Below, one piece after another: positions 5,208 through 55,744 of a stretch of 64,000 nucleotides of DNA. The stretch's first letter is position 1. Each line of letters begins with the position of its first letter. The stretch spans positions 5,836 through 69,835 of the forward strand of contig CALRHD010000004.1 in the NCBI GenBank assembly GCA_943359325.1, in the 5' to 3' direction. A program made the position numbers and the translations under genes. The notes under the pieces were generated by a model. The model saw nothing but the letters and a program-made list of their open reading frames with translations, was not told the DNA's origin and did not search any database. The stretch comes from Candidatus Uhrbacteria bacterium (GTDB lineage: Bacteria > Patescibacteriota > Patescibacteriia > UBA9934).

Positions 5208-5249
5208 TTATCCACAGTGTAAGATTCTTAAAATCACTACTTATCCACA
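5208..5249 (+). promoter_or_regulatory. two perfect DnaA-box 9-mers (TTATCCACA) 24 nt apart in the upstream region of the surface-protein operon
   Basis: ttatccaca at 5208-5216 and at 5241-5249, read directly from the sequence. Confidence 0.5.
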
Positions 5250-18707: not shown

Positions 18708-18790
18708 CTATGTGGATAACATGAGTTTTCCACACAAGTTATCCACAGGCATACACCAAATTTATGCCAATATTTATCCACAGTTGAACA
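18708..18790. promoter_or_regulatory. cluster of four DnaA-box-like 9-mers (two perfect TTATCCACA, one perfect reverse TGTGGATAA, one TTTTCCACA), about 8.5 kb from dnaA
   Basis: tgtggataa...ttttccaca...ttatccaca...ttatccaca within 83 bp, read directly. Confidence 0.55.
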
Positions 18791-23125: not shown

Positions 23126-23143
23126 TTGGCTAAAAATAGCCAA
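23126..23143. promoter_or_regulatory. palindromic motif TTGGCTA-aaaa-TAGCCAA in the divergent region between the M23 peptidase and tig genes
   Basis: Read directly. The same half-sites recur at 33032-33048 and 54717-54743. Confidence 0.45.
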
Positions 23144-33010: not shown

Positions 33011-33058
33011 TTGCGAAAATGCAACAAAAGATAGCCAAAATTTGGCTAATATTCGCAA
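33011..33058. promoter_or_regulatory. nested palindrome TTGCGAA...TAGCCAA-aat-TTGGCTA...TTCGCAA between the PBP1A and 3D-domain genes
   Basis: Inner 17-bp perfect palindrome at 33032-33048 flanked by outer inverted repeats TTGCGAA/TTCGCAA. Shares half-sites with the motif at 23126. Confidence 0.45.
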
Positions 33059-45270: not shown

Positions 45271-45657
45271 TTAGCCTGTTGACGTTGCCGTACCGAGCTG
45301 GTCGATAACGAACGACGAAATGGCGTAAGCCGAGAGCAAGATGATGAGACCAATGACCGAGTTGAGCAAAATGCCGCGTGCCTTTTTGACGTTGTCTTCG
45401 TTTCCTCCCGCAGTCATCCAGAGGAGTCCTGCGTAGATGATGAGAATGAGGAAGATAACACCGAGGAAGCCGAGCAGTACGCTAATGAGCGAACCGATCG
45501 TCGTTGTGAGACTTCCTGCGTCACCACCAAGACCGGCGGAGTCGTTGACTTCATCGAGCTGGCCTGAGAGGTCAACGGCGTGTGCACTTTGCAGTGCGAT
45601 GGGTGCGAGTGGCAAGGCAGCCATTGCTGCCGCCATGAGTGCGTGTTTGAGCTTCAT
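45271..45657 (-). CDS. TrbC/VirB2-like pilin family protein (paralog 6 of 6)
   Basis: Signal peptide ending AHA. Conserved core LISVLLGFLGVIFLILIIYAGLLWMTAGGNEDNVKKARGILLNSVIGLIILLSAYAISSFVI (two TM helices around the WMTAGGN motif). Confidence 0.7.
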   Translation of the reverse strand: MKLKHALMAAAMAALPLAPIALQSAHAVDLSGQLDEVNDSAGLGGDAGSLTTTIGSLISVLLGFLGVIFLILIIYAGLLWMTAGGNEDNVKKARGILLNSVIGLIILLSAYAISSFVIDQLGTATSTG

Positions 45658-45666
45658 AGCAAAAAA

Positions 45667-46041
45667 TTAATATGTGTTAGTACCTACATAGCGTATCACG
45701 GTTGCCGAAATCGCATAAGAGGATAACACGATTACGAGTCCAATAACCGCGTTGAGCAAAATGCCGCGTGCCTTTTTTACTTGATCGGCGTTCCCTGCAG
45801 CCGTCATCCACAAGAGTCCTGCGTAAATCGTAAGAAAGAGAAAAATAACACCAAGAAATCCGAGCAGTACGCTAATGAGTGTACCGATCATTGGCAGCAA
45901 TCCTTCAGACGAAAATGCGGCGTCTTGCGTTGCACCCGCAGCAACTGTTGCACTGTCGTAACTTATTGCATGCACCAAAAGAGGAGTTGCTGCAACGAAC
46001 AGACAGGCATATAACGTTGCGGTGAGAAGGGGGCGACGCAT
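45667..46041 (-). CDS. TrbC/VirB2-like pilin family protein (paralog 5)
   Basis: Internal ATG (MRRPLLTATLYACLFVAATPLLVHA) chosen to avoid overlap with the upstream paralog. Same conserved core LISVLLGFLGVIFLFLTIYAGLLWMTAAGNADQVKKARGILLNAVIGLVIVLSSYAISA. Confidence 0.7.
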   Translation of the reverse strand: MRRPLLTATLYACLFVAATPLLVHAISYDSATVAAGATQDAAFSSEGLLPMIGTLISVLLGFLGVIFLFLTIYAGLLWMTAAGNADQVKKARGILLNAVIGLVIVLSSYAISATVIRYVGTNTY

Positions 46042-46042
46042 A

Positions 46043-46435
46043 TTACGGTGATCCGTTAATATCTCCAACGGTGAGCGCATTGAAAATCGCCGCAGTGAGC
46101 GCGTACGCTGCAGTAACGATCACAAGACCAATTACAGAATTGACCATTATTTCTCGAGCTTTTTTGACCTGGTCGCTGTTACCTGCCGCAGTCATCCACA
46201 AGAGTCCGGCGTAGAGCATGAGGAGAAGGAATATGACGCCGATCAGCGCAAGAATGGGGGCAATGATGTATGTGCCGATAAAGACGGTAATGCCACCCGT
46301 CGCATTGTTTGTGTCGTAGTTTGCAACCTCTCCAGTGCTAATGAGCCCCGTGTCGCTGAGTGCGATTCTCGCTGAAGCAAGCGCCGGCAGAGAAAGCGTG
46401 AACACGAACAGAAGGGTGACGAGGAGTTTTCGCAT
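46043..46435 (-). CDS. TrbC/VirB2-like pilin family protein (paralog 4)
   Basis: Signal peptide MRKLLVTLLFVFTLSLPALASA. Core ILALIGVIFLLLMLYAGLLWMTAAGNSDQVKKAREIMVNSVIGLVIVTAAYA. Confidence 0.7.
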   Translation of the reverse strand: MRKLLVTLLFVFTLSLPALASARIALSDTGLISTGEVANYDTNNATGGITVFIGTYIIAPILALIGVIFLLLMLYAGLLWMTAAGNSDQVKKAREIMVNSVIGLVIVTAAYALTAAIFNALTVGDINGSP

Positions 46436-46436
46436 A

Positions 46437-46847
46437 CTAGCTTTGTGTCGACGTGATAATGGAGCTAATAACGAAGCTCGCGATGGCGTACGCCGAGAGA
46501 ATAATCGCCAAACCGATGATACCTGCGATAATGAGGTTCTTTGCTTCGGTGACTTTTTCGTCGTTGCCTCCTGCAGTCATCCATTTAAAACCGCCGAGAA
46601 GAATAATGACGACCGCAATAACGCCGAGGAATCCGAGGAGTACACGAATAAGTTGGCCGATGGTCGTTTTGATGTCTGCTTGGCCGAGGCCTGCAGTGTC
46701 GCCGAAGTCGGACGGCAAAATGTCTTCTGCTTCAAGCTGTTGTGCATGTGCAGGAACTGCCTGCATGAGCATTGCACCGCCAAACGGCAGGGCAAGGAGT
46801 GCCGCAACGCTTGCGCCGACCAAGAACCGTGTAAAGGTTTGTGTCAT
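46437..46847 (-). CDS. TrbC/VirB2-like pilin family protein (paralog 3)
   Basis: Signal peptide ending AHA. Core LIRVLLGFLGVIAVVIILLGGFKWMTAGGNDEKVTEAKNLIIAGIIGLAIILSAYAIASFVI. Confidence 0.7.
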   Translation of the reverse strand: MTQTFTRFLVGASVAALLALPFGGAMLMQAVPAHAQQLEAEDILPSDFGDTAGLGQADIKTTIGQLIRVLLGFLGVIAVVIILLGGFKWMTAGGNDEKVTEAKNLIIAGIIGLAIILSAYAIASFVISSIITSTQS

Positions 46848-46890
46848 ACGAAAAAAATAATGAATGGATGTATAAAGTATAGCACATTAA

Positions 46891-47268
46891 CTATAGAGCA
46901 GTCGCACTGCCTGTTGTAAGCGCGTTTATGAGTGCGCTGACAATTGCGTATGCAGCAAACACAACGACAAGTCCGAGTGTTGCCCACACAATAATTTCAC
47001 GACCTTTTTTAATGCGGTCGGGATTTCCGGCACTCGTGAGCCAAAACATGCCACCATAAATAAACATGACAAGTGCGAGCGAACCGATAATAGACAAAAA
47101 GCCTTTGATAACCGTACCGAGAATAATACGCACATCGGTTTCGCCGAGCGGATTGTAGAGTGTGACGTCGGCGGCGTGGACAGGGGAGGCGAAAAGAGAT
47201 CCTGCAAGGCCGGAAACGAGAAAAGAGAAAAGGAGAACGAGGAGTGATGCGGAGAGAAACTTTTTCAT
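46891..47268 (-). CDS. TrbC/VirB2-like pilin family protein (paralog 2, more divergent)
   Basis: Signal peptide MKKFLSASLLVLLFSFLVSGLAGSLFASPVHA. Core FLSIIGSLALVMFIYGGMFWLTSAGNPDRIKKGREIIVWATLGLVVVFAAYAIVSALI. Confidence 0.65.
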   Translation of the reverse strand: MKKFLSASLLVLLFSFLVSGLAGSLFASPVHAADVTLYNPLGETDVRIILGTVIKGFLSIIGSLALVMFIYGGMFWLTSAGNPDRIKKGREIIVWATLGLVVVFAAYAIVSALINALTTGSATAL

Positions 47269-47275
47269 ATCAAAA

Positions 47276-47797
47276 TTATTCTGTCTGTATAATGTCGCTC
47301 GCTTCGGTGCCGATGGTATCTTCTATATTTGTTGTTGCAGGTTCGCCAGTTTTGAGGATGGAAATGACGAGGTTAATGAATGCGTATGCACCAAAGACAA
47401 TGACGAGTCCGATTGCGGCGCCAGTGATAGCATCTTTGCCGCGTTGTACCCGTTCAGGGTAGCCAGCGGAAAGAATCCATTCAAACCCGCCGTATACAAA
47501 TGCGATCAACGCTGCGCTGCCCGAAAGTGCGAGAATAAGATAGCTAATGTTCACCGCTACCTGTAGCGCCTGTTCGACTGTGCACCTTCCTGAATCTTTG
47601 CATGCACAGTGGGCGGTGTCGGCGTCGGTTTCGAATGGCGCGGAACAGATGTTTGCGAAAATAATGCCGTCGCGGCGAATGTCGCTGTATTCGGTGCTGA
47701 TGGTGAGAGCGTGAGCAGAGAATGGAGAAACAAAAAAACCGACGGAGAGAACAAGCCCGAACATGATAGGCGCAAACAAGCGACGGATTGCGTGCAT
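47276..47797 (-). CDS. TrbC/VirB2-like pilin family protein (paralog 1, longest, with Cys-rich insert)
   Basis: Signal peptide ending SAHA. Insert ANICSAPFETDADTAHCACKDSGRCTV. Core LILALSGSAALIAFVYGGFEWILSAGYPERVQRGKDAITGAAIGLVIVFGAYAFINLVISIL. Confidence 0.65.
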   Translation of the reverse strand: MHAIRRLFAPIMFGLVLSVGFFVSPFSAHALTISTEYSDIRRDGIIFANICSAPFETDADTAHCACKDSGRCTVEQALQVAVNISYLILALSGSAALIAFVYGGFEWILSAGYPERVQRGKDAITGAAIGLVIVFGAYAFINLVISILKTGEPATTNIEDTIGTEASDIIQTE

Positions 47798-52040: not shown

Positions 52041-53114
52041 ATGAATCTACGAACCAACAATATCCCCGAATCCGTTTGGTCGCTGATTAATCAAATCGAC
52101 CATCTGAAGGGGCGATGGATTGGAGGAGCAAAACTCAACCCGCAGGCGCTTGGGCGCTTGAAGCGGTCGGTTTTGGTGACATCGACCGGCGCGTCAACGC
52201 GTATCGAAGGATCGAAGCTGTCCGACGAAGACGTGGAGAAGTTCATGCGAGGTTTGTCGCTACAAAAATTTACCGATCGCGACAAACAGGAAGTACAAGG
52301 GTATTTTGAGCTGCTAGAAAATGTCTTTACTTCGTGGAAGCACATCCCATTTACAGAAGGCGTTATCAAACAGCTGCATCGAGAGCTGTTACAGTACACA
52401 AAGAAGGACGAACGGCATCGTGGCGAGTATAAAAAGATGGAGAATTCGGTGGAGGTGTTCGACGAATCGGGTAAATCTGTGAGCGTAATTTTTGAGACTA
52501 CTCCCGCCTATCTTACGCCAAAACGGATGGAGGAGCTCGTTGAACGGACAGCGGGCGCGCTATCCGGCAAAGTCGGATCCGGCTCCGCCGGAAAGCGAAA
52601 AGAGGTTCATTCGCTTATCGTCATTGGAAACTTCCTCGTCGAATTTCTCGCGATCCATCCGTTCCAAGATGGCAATGGGCGTCTTTCACGCATCCTCACG
52701 AATTTATTTTTGTTAAAAGCAGGGTACGAATATGTACCGTACGTCTCCCACGAAAAGCTCATCGAGGACAACAAGACGGATTACTACGTCGCGCTCCGCA
52801 AGAGTCAGTCATCGCTAAGAACCGAGCGCGAGAATGTCACGCCTTGGTTGGAATTCTTCCTAACCGTTTCGCTTGAACAGGCGCGACAGGCTATTGAGTT
52901 ACTTTCGCATGAGAATATTGAAAAGATTCTCTCACCAAAACAGCTTGCGGTGTGGCGGTATCTTGAAACAGTCGACGAAGCAACGGCGGGAGATGTCGCC
53001 AAGGCAGCTGGCGTTGCCCGCCCGACTGTCTCGCAGGCAATTGACGTATTGTTGCGATTGAAGAAGATCGAACGTATTGGGCAGGGACGAACGACGAGAT
53101 ATCGGAAAATTTAG
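52041..53114 (+). CDS. Fic-family protein (Fic/DOC AMPylation fold) with C-terminal winged-HTH
   Basis: Fic motif HPFQDGNGRLSR present. 357 aa. Confidence 0.85.
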   Translation: MNLRTNNIPESVWSLINQIDHLKGRWIGGAKLNPQALGRLKRSVLVTSTGASTRIEGSKLSDEDVEKFMRGLSLQKFTDRDKQEVQGYFELLENVFTSWKHIPFTEGVIKQLHRELLQYTKKDERHRGEYKKMENSVEVFDESGKSVSVIFETTPAYLTPKRMEELVERTAGALSGKVGSGSAGKRKEVHSLIVIGNFLVEFLAIHPFQDGNGRLSRILTNLFLLKAGYEYVPYVSHEKLIEDNKTDYYVALRKSQSSLRTERENVTPWLEFFLTVSLEQARQAIELLSHENIEKILSPKQLAVWRYLETVDEATAGDVAKAAGVARPTVSQAIDVLLRLKKIERIGQGRTTRYRKI

Positions 53115-53216: not shown

Positions 53217-53306
53217 TGGCGGAGAGGGTGGGATTCGAACCCACGTTACCCTTTCGAGTAAACCACATTTCGAGTGTGGCGCGTTCGACCACTCTGCCAC
53301 CTCTCC
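53217..53306 (-). tRNA. tRNA-Ser (anticodon CGA), long variable arm
   Basis: GGAGAGG acceptor, D-arm GCAGAGTGGTCGAACGC, anticodon stem CCACA/TGTGG with loop CTCGAAA, variable arm TTTACTCGAAAGGGTAACG, T-arm GTGGG-TTCGAAT-CCCAC, discriminator G, CCA encoded. Confidence 0.85.
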
Positions 53307-53586: not shown

Positions 53587-53638
53587 ATAAGAAAGATTCG
53601 TCCGGTCATTCGACCGGACGCCCCGTCGGATGACGGGG

Positions 53639-53729
53639 CGAACCCACGTTACCCTTTCGAGTAAACCACATTTCGAGTGTGGCGCGTTCGACCCCTGCCT
53701 GCCGGCAGGCAGGACTCTGCCACCTCTCC
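53639..53729 (-). pseudogene. disrupted second copy of tRNA-Ser(CGA): 5-prime two-thirds identical to the intact gene, a 20-nt perfect palindrome (CCTGCCTGCCGGCAGGCAGG, 53694-53713) inserted in the D-loop, and 3-prime end truncated within the T-loop
   Basis: Identity to 53233-53290 read directly. Divergence begins after GTGGGTTCG. No acceptor 3-prime strand or CCA. Confidence 0.7.
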
Positions 53730-53802
53730 GGGTTTGCTTGTTGGTCGTTCCAACTTTTGAAGCAGTGAAATGGTAACAAAATCAACAGGAAATGCAAATG
53801 TA

Positions 53803-54066
53803 TCATTCGTATATTTCATGATCACCAACGGCAATGAGGGTTATGCGTCTTGGTTTTCCCTTTGGATAAAAAAAGATCATACGAATTTTATAGTTTACTG
53901 AGGCGCTGTAGGCATCGCGAAGCTTTCCTTGTAGTTTATGGACTCCAATGGATTTGTGGTTGGTTTCGTCCTTGAGCTTGTCGACAGCGATAAAGATCTC
54001 GTTTTGTAGGATTTTTGGCAGCGCACGAAGTTGTCGAAGAAAGCGACGTTCGTATTCAATCTGCAT
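53803..54066 (-). CDS. RelE/ParE-family type II toxin
   Basis: 87 aa (MQIEYERRFLRQLRALPKILQNEIFIAVDKL...ITLIAVGDHEIYE), typical RelE/StbE fold pattern. Overlaps the upstream antitoxin gene by 11 nt. Confidence 0.75.
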   Translation of the reverse strand: MQIEYERRFLRQLRALPKILQNEIFIAVDKLKDETNHKSIGVHKLQGKLRDAYSASVNYKIRMIFFYPKGKPRRITLIAVGDHEIYE

Positions 54067-54292
54067 ACTCTTTTGCCATTCGTTTCACGATAGTGCGGAG
54101 ATCGCCCCTCACTACGTCACCTTCGCTGGCATTCCGCATAGATCGGAGGAGTTCTTCGGTTTCCTGTTCTTCCGAGTACCACGATAAGGCCTGCCGAACT
54201 ACCTCAGCTTTTGTTGATGCGCGACCACGTTTGACCATGGTGTTGATAAAACTCTCTAGTCGTGCGGGAAGGGGAACAGAAAGTGTTGCCAT
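54056..54292 (-). CDS. ribbon-helix-helix (CopG/ParD-like) antitoxin
   Basis: 78 aa. N-terminal RHH (MATLSVPLPARLESFINTMVKRGRASTKAEVVRQALSWY). Confidence 0.7.
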   Translation of the reverse strand: MATLSVPLPARLESFINTMVKRGRASTKAEVVRQALSWYSEEQETEELLRSMRNASEGDVVRGDLRTIVKRMAKEYAD

Positions 54293-54415: not shown

Positions 54416-54697
54416 TTATCGACGGAGCGTGGTAATGCGACGAGACTCGATGACGTTGACGCGGACATGGATCTGCATGGGGTTTGGGTCATCGGGCTCT
54501 TGTGTGAGCGAGAAGTGTGCTGAACGGACTGTTTGCGTGAAAACGACTTGTGGTTGGTCGAGAAACCGCACGCCTGTCGGCAAGTGAACACCGTGCATGA
54601 TGTTTAGTTGTGTTCGTGCTGACTCTTTTGTTTCAGCGCGGTTGAGAATGTTGCGAACCGCGGTTTCTACTGCTTCACGTTCATACGGTATGGCCAT
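54416..54697 (-). CDS. hypothetical protein (93 aa)
   Basis: ATG with GAGGAG SD 6 nt upstream. No recognisable domain. Confidence 0.5.
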   Translation of the reverse strand: MAIPYEREAVETAVRNILNRAETKESARTQLNIMHGVHLPTGVRFLDQPQVVFTQTVRSAHFSLTQEPDDPNPMQIHVRVNVIESRRITTLRR

Positions 54698-54716: not shown

Positions 54717-54743
54717 TAGCCAAAACTTACGGGTTATTGGCTA
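54717..54743. promoter_or_regulatory. third occurrence of the TAGCCAA...TTGGCTA inverted-repeat motif (13-nt spacer), in the divergent region between the 93-aa gene and the DnaA-C-like gene
   Basis: Read directly: TAGCCAAAActtacgggttaTTGGCTAAAAA. Confidence 0.4.
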
Positions 54744-54784
54744 AAAAAGCAAGTTTCTGCTACCGTCCCTGCACCTCTGGAGGA

Positions 54785-55111
54785 ATGATGACGTTGGAAG
54801 GGAAAGCTCGTGTGGTTATTGTATTGGTTTCAGAATGTTATGACGTGCCCGTGGAAGATATCTTAAGCATTCAGAAGACGGCGCGAGTTTTTCGGCCGCG
54901 GCACGTTGCGATGTACTTGTGTCGGAATGACGTGCTCATGTCGTTTCCCGCCATCGGGAGGCTCTTTGTTCGAGACAACTCGACCGTGCAGAATGGATGT
55001 GGGCAGATACGGCGGGCTTTGAAGAAGGAGCCGAAACTCGTGGGGGTCATTGCCGCGTTGCGCAGTCGATATGCCGAATGCATGCAGGAAGGGGCACTGG
55101 CTGTCGCATAA
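54785..55111 (+). CDS. stand-alone DnaA domain-IV-like (DnaA C-terminal HTH) protein
   Basis: 108 aa. VPVEDILSIQKTARVFRPRHVAMYLCRNDVLMSFPAIGRLFVRDNSTVQNGCGQIRRAL aligns with the DnaA DNA-binding domain IV signature (RQ.AMYL...S...IG..FG.RDH.TV). ATG-ATG with TGGAGG SD. The ORF-track TTG start at 54737 lies inside the palindromic motif. Confidence 0.7.
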   Translation: MMTLEGKARVVIVLVSECYDVPVEDILSIQKTARVFRPRHVAMYLCRNDVLMSFPAIGRLFVRDNSTVQNGCGQIRRALKKEPKLVGVIAALRSRYAECMQEGALAVA

Positions 55112-55165
55112 CCCTCGAAAGAAGTATCATCGGCGCACAGCTCCTTGTGCGCCGAAAATGTTTTT

Positions 55166-55744
55166 ATGATGACTGCAAAATTTATCACAAGCGCAACGAA
55201 CGGAGCCGGTTTGCCTGTTTCGGATAAGCCACAGATTGCACTTGTGGGGCGGTCGAATGTGGGGAAGTCGTCACTCATTAATCATCTCACTCAACAAAAA
55301 AGCCTCGCCCGTGTCAGTTCGGCTCCCGGAAGAACACAAACGATGAATGTGTACGAAATCGACAGGCGCTATTTTCTTGTCGACCTTCCCGGCTATGGCT
55401 ATGCGAAAACGTCGAAAGAAAAACGCGCAGGTTTCGCAGAAATGATTGAGCGATATCTCACGGACACGCCGCAACTGGCACTTGTGCTTGTGGTGATTGA
55501 CGCTTTCGTTGGGCCGACGGATTTAGATCACGATATGCTCGAGCTCCTTCATTCGCTTGGAAGGCCTGTGATTATTGTTGTGAATAAAATTGATAAACTT
55601 TCAAAAAGTGAATCTGTCTTACTCATGCAGAAACTTTCTGCTGAATATGTGGATGCAAAATTTATTCCGCATTCCGTCGAAACAGACAAGCATCGTGGAG
55701 AAATTTTAGAGTCGATTGATGTTGCTATTCGTGCAGCGCGATAG
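55166..55744 (+). CDS. engB: ribosome-biogenesis GTPase YihA/YsxC (EngB)
   Basis: G1 motif GRSNVGKSS, G3 DLPGYG, G4 NKID. 3-prime end overlaps the convergent ligase gene by about 20 nt. Confidence 0.85.
   Translation: MMTAKFITSATNGAGLPVSDKPQIALVGRSNVGKSSLINHLTQQKSLARVSSAPGRTQTMNVYEIDRRYFLVDLPGYGYAKTSKEKRAGFAEMIERYLTDTPQLALVLVVIDAFVGPTDLDHDMLELLHSLGRPVIIVVNKIDKLSKSESVLLMQKLSAEYVDAKFIPHSVETDKHRGEILESIDVAIRAAR

Follow-up and report, generated by a model that had tools for sequence, protein, structure and literature searches.

What is a protein that consists of DnaA's DNA-binding domain, and of nothing else, doing on a bacterial chromosome some distance away from the dnaA gene itself? The question is raised by a 108-aa open reading frame (ORF) in the 64-kb stretch of DNA analysed here (hereafter the window), which a first-pass annotation had read as a stand-alone DnaA domain IV encoded about 26 kb from the real dnaA. 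That annotation had further proposed that a protein of this sort could compete with DnaA at its boxes, that such proteins are cargo of phages and plasmids, and that the promoter region of the gene carries a recurring TAGCCAA/TTGGCTA palindrome. We refer to the product of the ORF as DnaA-C. The source names of the nearest EngB/YsxC homologues place the genome in the Patescibacteria, near Candidatus Uhrbacteria. Six consecutive small genes with Pfam T4SS_pilin (PF18895) matches lie at about 45271-47797 of the window, and the presence on this contig of such T4SS-pilin-like gene arrays may fit a member of the Patescibacteria.

A complete DnaA domain IV

The ORF begins with two consecutive ATG codons and ends with TAA. 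A Shine-Dalgarno sequence, GGAGG, precedes the ATG at 54785 by 1 nt and the ATG at 54788 by 4 nt, and either of the two could be the start codon. In a profile search the encoded protein matched the Pfam family Bac_DnaA_C (PF08299) with 65 bits (E = 6.5e-18; gathering cutoff 31.5 bits), with ORF residues 11-75 aligned to model positions 4-69 of 69, that is, across the whole domain; no other domain was assigned. The NCBIfam model of full-length DnaA (TIGR00362) reached 63 bits against a cutoff of 343.9, and its match was limited to the last 85 model positions (351-435). Neither domain I nor the AAA+ domain III was found in the ORF by Pfam, and the protein falls outside the TIGR00362 DnaA equivalog.

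Structure points the same way. All PDB sequence matches of the ORF were DnaA proteins, and an AlphaFold2 (AF2) model built on a 45-sequence alignment (pLDDT 94.3, pTM 0.87) superposed in Foldseek on two DnaA DNA-binding domains crystallised with DNA, namely 3pvp_A (TM 0.82/0.92, rmsd 1.0 A) and 1j1v_A (TM 0.77/0.87). The model displays the all-helical fold of the DnaA DNA-binding domain (DBD), with helix-turn-helix (HTH) and basic loop, its predicted helices spanning residues 4-19, 23-26, 33-48, 54-61, 65-81 (the recognition helix) and 83-107, and the protein is basic (pI 9.5). Moreover, tblastn with the resident DnaA found no remnant of domains I-III flanking the ORF, which rules out a pseudogene or fragment of a larger dnaA, and no second DnaA-like AAA+ gene in the 64-kb window. 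The ORF is a complete DnaA domain IV and nothing more. The profile search and the structure prediction bear out the first-pass annotation in this respect, and its estimate of the distance to dnaA is likewise correct (Table 1).

DnaA-C shares with the DnaA domain IV of known structure (1J1V, 3PVP) the same fold, the same Pfam family, the basic loop and a recognition helix starting R-D, and it keeps the equivalents of P423, R432, D433 and T436. It differs from DnaA in the absence of domains I-III, and hence of ATP binding, oligomerisation and helicase loading, and it differs from DnaA domain IV by R399K, H434N, L438Q and H439N and by an identity of only 32% to the resident domain.

Table 1. Features of the window around the DnaA-C gene, the resident dnaA and the palindrome sites.
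Feature	Position	Strand	Basis or setting
Inverted pair TTGGCTA-N4-TAGCCAA	23126-23143		between M23/LysM peptidase gene (-) and trigger factor gene (+); speculative target
Resident dnaA (DnaA_N, AAA+, DnaA_C)	27259-28644		gene calls; 26 kb upstream of the DnaA-C gene
dnaN	28903-30039		gene calls
Inverted pair TAGCCAA-N3-TTGGCTA	33032-33048		between class A PBP gene (-) and 192-aa gene (+); speculative target
SoFic-type Fic with C-terminal wHTH	52041-53114	+	PADLOC SoFic, 143 bits
tRNA-Ser(cga)	53217-53306	-	tRNA call
GIY-YIG protein, 89 aa	53317-53586	-	family match
Degenerate second tRNA-Ser body	about 53600-53730		sequence similarity
RelE-like toxin and ParD-like antitoxin	53803-54292	-	family matches
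93-aa ORF (orf93), strong Shine-Dalgarno GAGGAG	54416-54697	-	divergent neighbour of the DnaA-C gene; matches no family or structure
Inverted pair TAGCCAA-N13-TTGGCTA	54717-54743		87-bp divergent intergenic region orf93/DnaA-C; candidate operator
Shine-Dalgarno GGAGG	54779-54783	+	read directly from the sequence
DnaA-C gene, 108-aa free-standing DnaA domain IV	54785-55111	+	profile, structure and flank searches
Terminator-like GC-rich hairpin, then AAATGTTTTT	55130-55155	+	MFE -22.2 kcal/mol, z = -3.6
engB	55166-55744	+	gene call
O-antigen ligase and flippase genes	beyond engB	-	family matches

Genomic setting

The surroundings of the gene are a small accessory islet adjoining a tRNA gene, and not a prophage. 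Among the genes called within 10 kb on either side of the DnaA-C gene there is no Pfam match to phage-structural, integrase, transposase or replication genes, and the gene lies outside any phage, prophage or plasmid replication or early region. Its hairpin, with a weak T-tract, starts 19 nt past the stop codon, between the gene and engB. The divergent neighbour, orf93, matched nothing in Pfam, NCBIfam, PHROGs, PADLOC or PDB and nothing among the loci and proteins that were fetched, and the structure modelled by AF2 from its sequence alone (pLDDT 45) was unusable; it may be a partner of DnaA-C or a co-regulated gene. The GC skew of the sequence switches near the distant dnaA.

Several observations concern the islet itself. 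The Fic protein matches the PADLOC model of SoFic anti-phage defence and adjoins the tRNA-Ser gene and the RelE/ParD-like pair. DnaA-C itself had no PADLOC match, and a role as a component of a defence system is not supported. The second tRNA-Ser(cga) copy stands some 400 bp from the intact gene, and its segment 53639-53699 is about 97% identical to 53236-53298. It carries a 20-nt palindromic insertion (CCTGCCTGCCGGCAGGCAGG), has two hairpins in place of the T-arm and 3' end, and is not called as a tRNA by ARAGORN or Rfam. The two copies bracket the GIY-YIG gene, and the second may have arisen as an att-like duplication or through an insertion associated with GIY-YIG.

Origin and distribution of the gene

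An identity of 32% to the resident domain IV rules out a recent duplicate of the resident dnaA. Close relatives are hard to find elsewhere. When 1.84 billion cluster representatives were searched exhaustively with HMMER, 5,938 matched at E <= 1e-3, none above 47% identity; a word-indexed search, covering 5.8 billion proteins, yielded nothing but the ORF; and a scan of genome contigs found only DnaA genes of full-length size in unrelated taxa (reading frames of 551-574 and 460 aa). The gene was found on five contigs, and the two that were fetched are both 100% identical to the window, so that there is no polymorphism between them.

With the adjacent engB as an anchor, synteny was examined in 80 loci from metagenomes, whose EngB proteins are no more than 51% identical, and in three closer relatives, for which the EngB identities are 74%, 74% and 64%. 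A DnaA_C ORF was found within the engB flanks of none of the 80 and beside engB in none of the three, whose upstream engB neighbours are unrelated to those of the window; gene order is not conserved. Furthermore, when the DnaA-C gene is ranked by synonymous codon usage against windows of 108 codons taken from core genes, it comes within the lowest 2.6%. Codon usage is similarly atypical in the Fic, GIY-YIG and toxin-antitoxin (TA) genes, and orf93 looks native. Because of the low identity to the resident domain, the lack of close relatives, the absence from other engB flanks and the atypical codons, we regard the gene as lineage-specific and probably horizontally acquired.

Short DnaA_C proteins as a class

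Short DnaA_C proteins are a known and widespread kind, as viral-locus counts together with the pelagiphage and HdaB literature make evident. Many of the best database matches of DnaA-C are themselves short (90-230 aa) with N-termini unlike those of DnaA, and NCBI names such proteins 'helix-turn-helix domain-containing protein'. One short homologue (P0141) lies on a long contig among small phage-like genes with SSB, and another (P0312) belongs to a Mu-like prophage, where it is flanked by the transposase/MuB genes on one side and by Gam/GemA on the other. In IMG/VR, a single-pattern scan for relatives of DnaA-C gave 243 viral loci at 30-48% identity to it; the best 80 of these 243 loci held 80 complete DnaA_C-carrying ORFs, 62 of them no longer than 350 aa, 37 no longer than 200 aa and 5 no longer than 130 aa, the size of DnaA-C. 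Most HTVC010P-type pelagiphages, moreover, carry genes for a DnaA DNA-binding domain (PF08299) whose function is unknown (PMC8477408). PHROGs gave the ORF a weak match to 'replication initiation protein' (E = 7e-5), and curated phage and plasmid records held no close relative of it, only a few weak matches of at most 40% identity. The idea that such proteins are mobile cargo thus holds for phages, on the strength of the IMG/VR loci, the two placed homologues and the pelagiphages, and draws little from curated plasmid and phage records. In architecture the phage and prophage proteins are similar to DnaA-C, and their identity to it is as high as any in the global database; none of them has a characterised function.

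Some database matches carry two to five tandem DnaA_C domains: P0002 (673 aa), P0007 (1100 aa), P0003, P0004 and P0010. Several of the repeats have non-canonical contact residues, and no AAA+ domain is recognisable by eye in P0002, the only repeat protein whose sequence was read. We know of no description of a tandem domain IV architecture.

HdaB of the Alphaproteobacteria is a domain-IV-only protein that binds HdaA and blocks RIDA; it lacks the equivalent of Arg399 and has that of Leu422 (PMC7049699). DnaA-C might by analogy stay off DNA and titrate a protein that contacts domain IV, as HdaB titrates HdaA, and thereby modulate initiation. The two proteins are indeed alike in being short homologues of domain IV alone (DnaA-C with its 108 aa and single Bac_DnaA_C match), about 32% identical to the domain IV of their host and without Arg at position 399 (PMC7049699). 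The alignment places K31 and F54 of DnaA-C at the positions of Arg399 and Leu422. However, DnaA-C, with Lys for R399 and a basic surface, keeps the basic loop, the R63-D64 start of the recognition helix and a pI of 9.5, as expected of a DNA binder; titration of a protein is not indicated. HdaB is also described from Alphaproteobacteria with HdaA, whereas the present genome is that of a Patescibacterium, judging by its EngB-homologue names, and no Hda-like AAA+ gene was found in the 64-kb window. The three NCBIfam PRK06030 models of short DnaA-C-like proteins, which may be equivalent to HdaB, have cutoffs of 181, 136 and 148 bits, and DnaA-C scored only 20, 17.1 and 12.7 bits with them; its nearest short relatives also fall below the cutoffs. 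An HdaB-like decoy is consequently very improbable. DnaA-C is a new, orphan-like member of a known, abundant and almost uncharacterised class, and what is unusual in it is only the lack of close relatives and the altered DNA-reading residues.

Base-reading residues and DnaA boxes

The base-specific contacts of E. coli DnaA are listed, in two papers that cite Fujikawa 2003, as R399, P423, D433, H434, T435 and H439 (PMC2533591, PMC7561715). R399 reads the 5' TTA via the minor groove, residues 434-451 form the helix that recognises the box towards its 3' end (TnCACA), and E. coli DnaA no longer binds the box when it carries R399A or T435M (PMC5742627). By alignment, the resident DnaA has all six of these residues (RPDHTH), and DnaA-C has, in the same order, K31, P55, D64, N65, S66 and N70 (KPDNSN), with Q69 at the position of L438. 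Likeness to DnaA at the box-reading positions, a comparison that the first-pass annotation had raised, therefore extends to P and D, and three of the six residues are changed non-conservatively or weakened (R399K, H434N, H439N); DnaA-C lacks the full set of a canonical TTATCCACA binder, which the resident protein has.

How exceptional this is can be judged from about 260 homologous domains, made up of 179 domains of the 150 best database matches and 83 viral ORFs with a DnaA_C match, among which DnaA-C alone has the KPDNSN signature. The great majority of the 179 domains have RPDHTH or a conservative variant of it, and Asn at 434 recurs among them only in P0006 and in P0080, which is of DnaA size; 49 of the 83 viral ORFs have RPDHTH, and none has Asn at 434. 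Short phage proteins differ from DnaA-C in setting as well as in signature, lying in phage early or replication regions and mostly having RPDHTH, whereas DnaA-C lies in a chromosomal islet and has KPDNSN. The scaffold and phosphate-contact residues R39, P55, R63, D64 and T67 are kept in DnaA-C. From these residues we infer that DnaA-C probably still binds DNA and that its specificity for the canonical DnaA box is doubtful; the example of P0080 suggests that Asn at 434 may still allow canonical binding, and the unusual residues could equally reflect decay of specific binding.

Perfect TTATCCACA boxes stand at 5208, 5241, 18711, 18739 and 18774, confirming the first-pass annotation on boxes outside oriC at 5.2 and 18.7 kb, and boxes with up to one mismatch number 28 in the 64-kb window, against 11.4 expected. 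Perfect boxes also occur around dnaA, in agreement with the canonical signature of the resident DnaA. The stretch 5208-5249 holds two perfect boxes 33 bp apart, and 18711-18782 holds three perfect boxes and one with a single mismatch within 72 bp, between a 424-aa gene and a DksA/TraR zinc-finger gene. Such distant clusters may be DnaA-regulated promoters or datA/DARS-like sites.

DnaA-C might then bind TTATCCACA at oriC, at the dnaA promoter and at the 5.2- and 18.7-kb clusters, antagonising or buffering DnaA, much as the first-pass annotation had envisaged. The intact fold, the retention of P55, R63, D64, S66 and T67, a Lys for Arg exchange that keeps the charge of the basic loop, the many perfect boxes in the window outside the dnaA region and the Asn at 434 of P0080 all speak for such a role, and the wider class probably does compete with DnaA, since RPDHTH is retained by almost all of its viral and other short members. 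Nevertheless, R399K, H434N and H439N, together with L438Q, alter half of the base-specific contacts, at one of which (R399), as at T435, a single substitution abolishes box binding in E. coli (PMC5742627); the signature is unique, and no canonical DnaA box lies in the promoter of the DnaA-C gene. Since three of the six box-reading residues differ in a combination found nowhere else in the comparison, simple competition at TTATCCACA boxes is not supported, and we hold it to be rather unlikely for this protein.

Decay, in turn, would be at home in a neutral relic, the leftover of a decayed replication module from a phage or other mobile element that is open by chance and has no role in the host. 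A singleton gene with no close relatives, atypical codon usage and aberrant recognition residues, whose variable islet also contains a TA pair, a Fic of the defence type and a degenerate copy of tRNA-Ser, is what such a history could leave behind. Against this, the ORF covers exactly the domain and is untruncated; the AF2 model is very confident throughout; the residues that are invariant in the core of the family (R39, A42, L45, G58, R63, D64 and T67) are all kept; a strong Shine-Dalgarno sequence and a downstream hairpin frame the gene; and phage genes and dnaA fragments are absent nearby. We regard the completeness of the protein, its DnaA-DBD-like fold, its basicity, its own ribosome-binding site and the hairpin as established, and consider a relic unlikely.

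A recurring palindrome

The palindrome reported for the promoter region of the DnaA-C gene is real, with arms at 54717 and 54737, and it recurs at 23126/23137 and 33032/33042. The window holds seven copies of the 7-mer TAGCCAA/TTGGCTA where 4.5 are expected, and six of the seven copies form three perfect inverted pairs, compared with a mean of 0.4 pairs in shuffles even with one mismatch allowed. All three pairs lie in divergent intergenic regions, and none was found in about 630 kb of other fetched loci, comprising Patescibacteria engB loci, four unrelated dnaA loci and two phage-like loci. The palindrome is a genome-specific, operator-like element.

Written in DnaA-box orientation, the half-sites read TTAGCCAAA, ATAGCCAAA, ATAGCCAAA, TTAGCCAAA, GTAGCCAAA and TTAGCCAAT. 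Their motif, TAGCCAAA / wTAGCCAAA, resembles TTATCCACA with T4 changed to G and C8 to A, both changes falling within the part of the box that is read by the altered helix, and position 9 (A) is conserved outside the 7-mer core. The 8-mer with one mismatch allowed is not enriched (45 found, 44.6 expected). Spacing and orientation of the arms vary across the three sites, which suits a monomeric binder of the DnaA type better than a dimeric repressor. As consistent -35 elements the TTGGCTA arms were rejected, their positions being inconsistent at the three sites; the right arm of the pair at 54717-54743 could double as a weak -35 (TTGGCT). The resemblance of the motif to a DnaA box makes TAGCCAAA a speculative target of DnaA-C, proposed post hoc, and some other lineage-specific regulator, the orf93 product included, could own it.

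Interpretation and significance

The reading that we favour, with a probability of about one half, is that an intact, acquired gene encodes a domain-IV-only protein that would act as a monomeric DNA binder by site occupancy, with a specificity shifted off the canonical box, and that may regulate its own expression. The gene would most likely have been acquired horizontally from phages and other mobile elements, which between them carry a large pool of short DnaA_C proteins. In analogy to isolated DnaA domain IV, DnaA-C would bind duplex DNA as a monomer through its HTH and basic loop; it would act by occupying sites, repressing or shielding them, because it has no AAA+ domain with which to oligomerise or open DNA. 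The site would be a DnaA-box-like 9-mer that differs from TTATCCACA in its 3' half, the half of the recognition helix, as expected from changes at K31, N65, N70 and Q69 in a conserved scaffold. The best candidate in the window is wTAGCCAAA in its three inverted pairs, one of which stands at the gene's own promoter, so that DnaA-C would be autoregulated.

A bolder form of this proposal, for which the odds appear decidedly low, is that DnaA-C derives from a captured DnaA domain IV that K31, N65, Q69 and N70 have re-tuned, so that it would serve as a transcription factor reading wTAGCCAAA as a monomer and acting on its own promoter and on two divergent promoters adjoining cell-wall genes, one at the M23/LysM peptidase gene with that of trigger factor and the other at the class A PBP gene. 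If true, it would be a natural example of re-programmed DnaA-box specificity.

The practical value of the finding is modest, and DnaA-C alone overturns nothing. Phages, prophages and some bacteria encode very many DnaA DNA-binding domains that stand alone, and the only group of them studied, HdaB, acts on a protein and not on DNA. DnaA-C shows that such a gene is also present in the chromosome of a reduced-genome Patescibacterium, in a group in which regulators of replication initiation are essentially unknown, and with recognition residues altered in this way it lends itself conveniently as a natural test case for the encoding of DnaA-box specificity.
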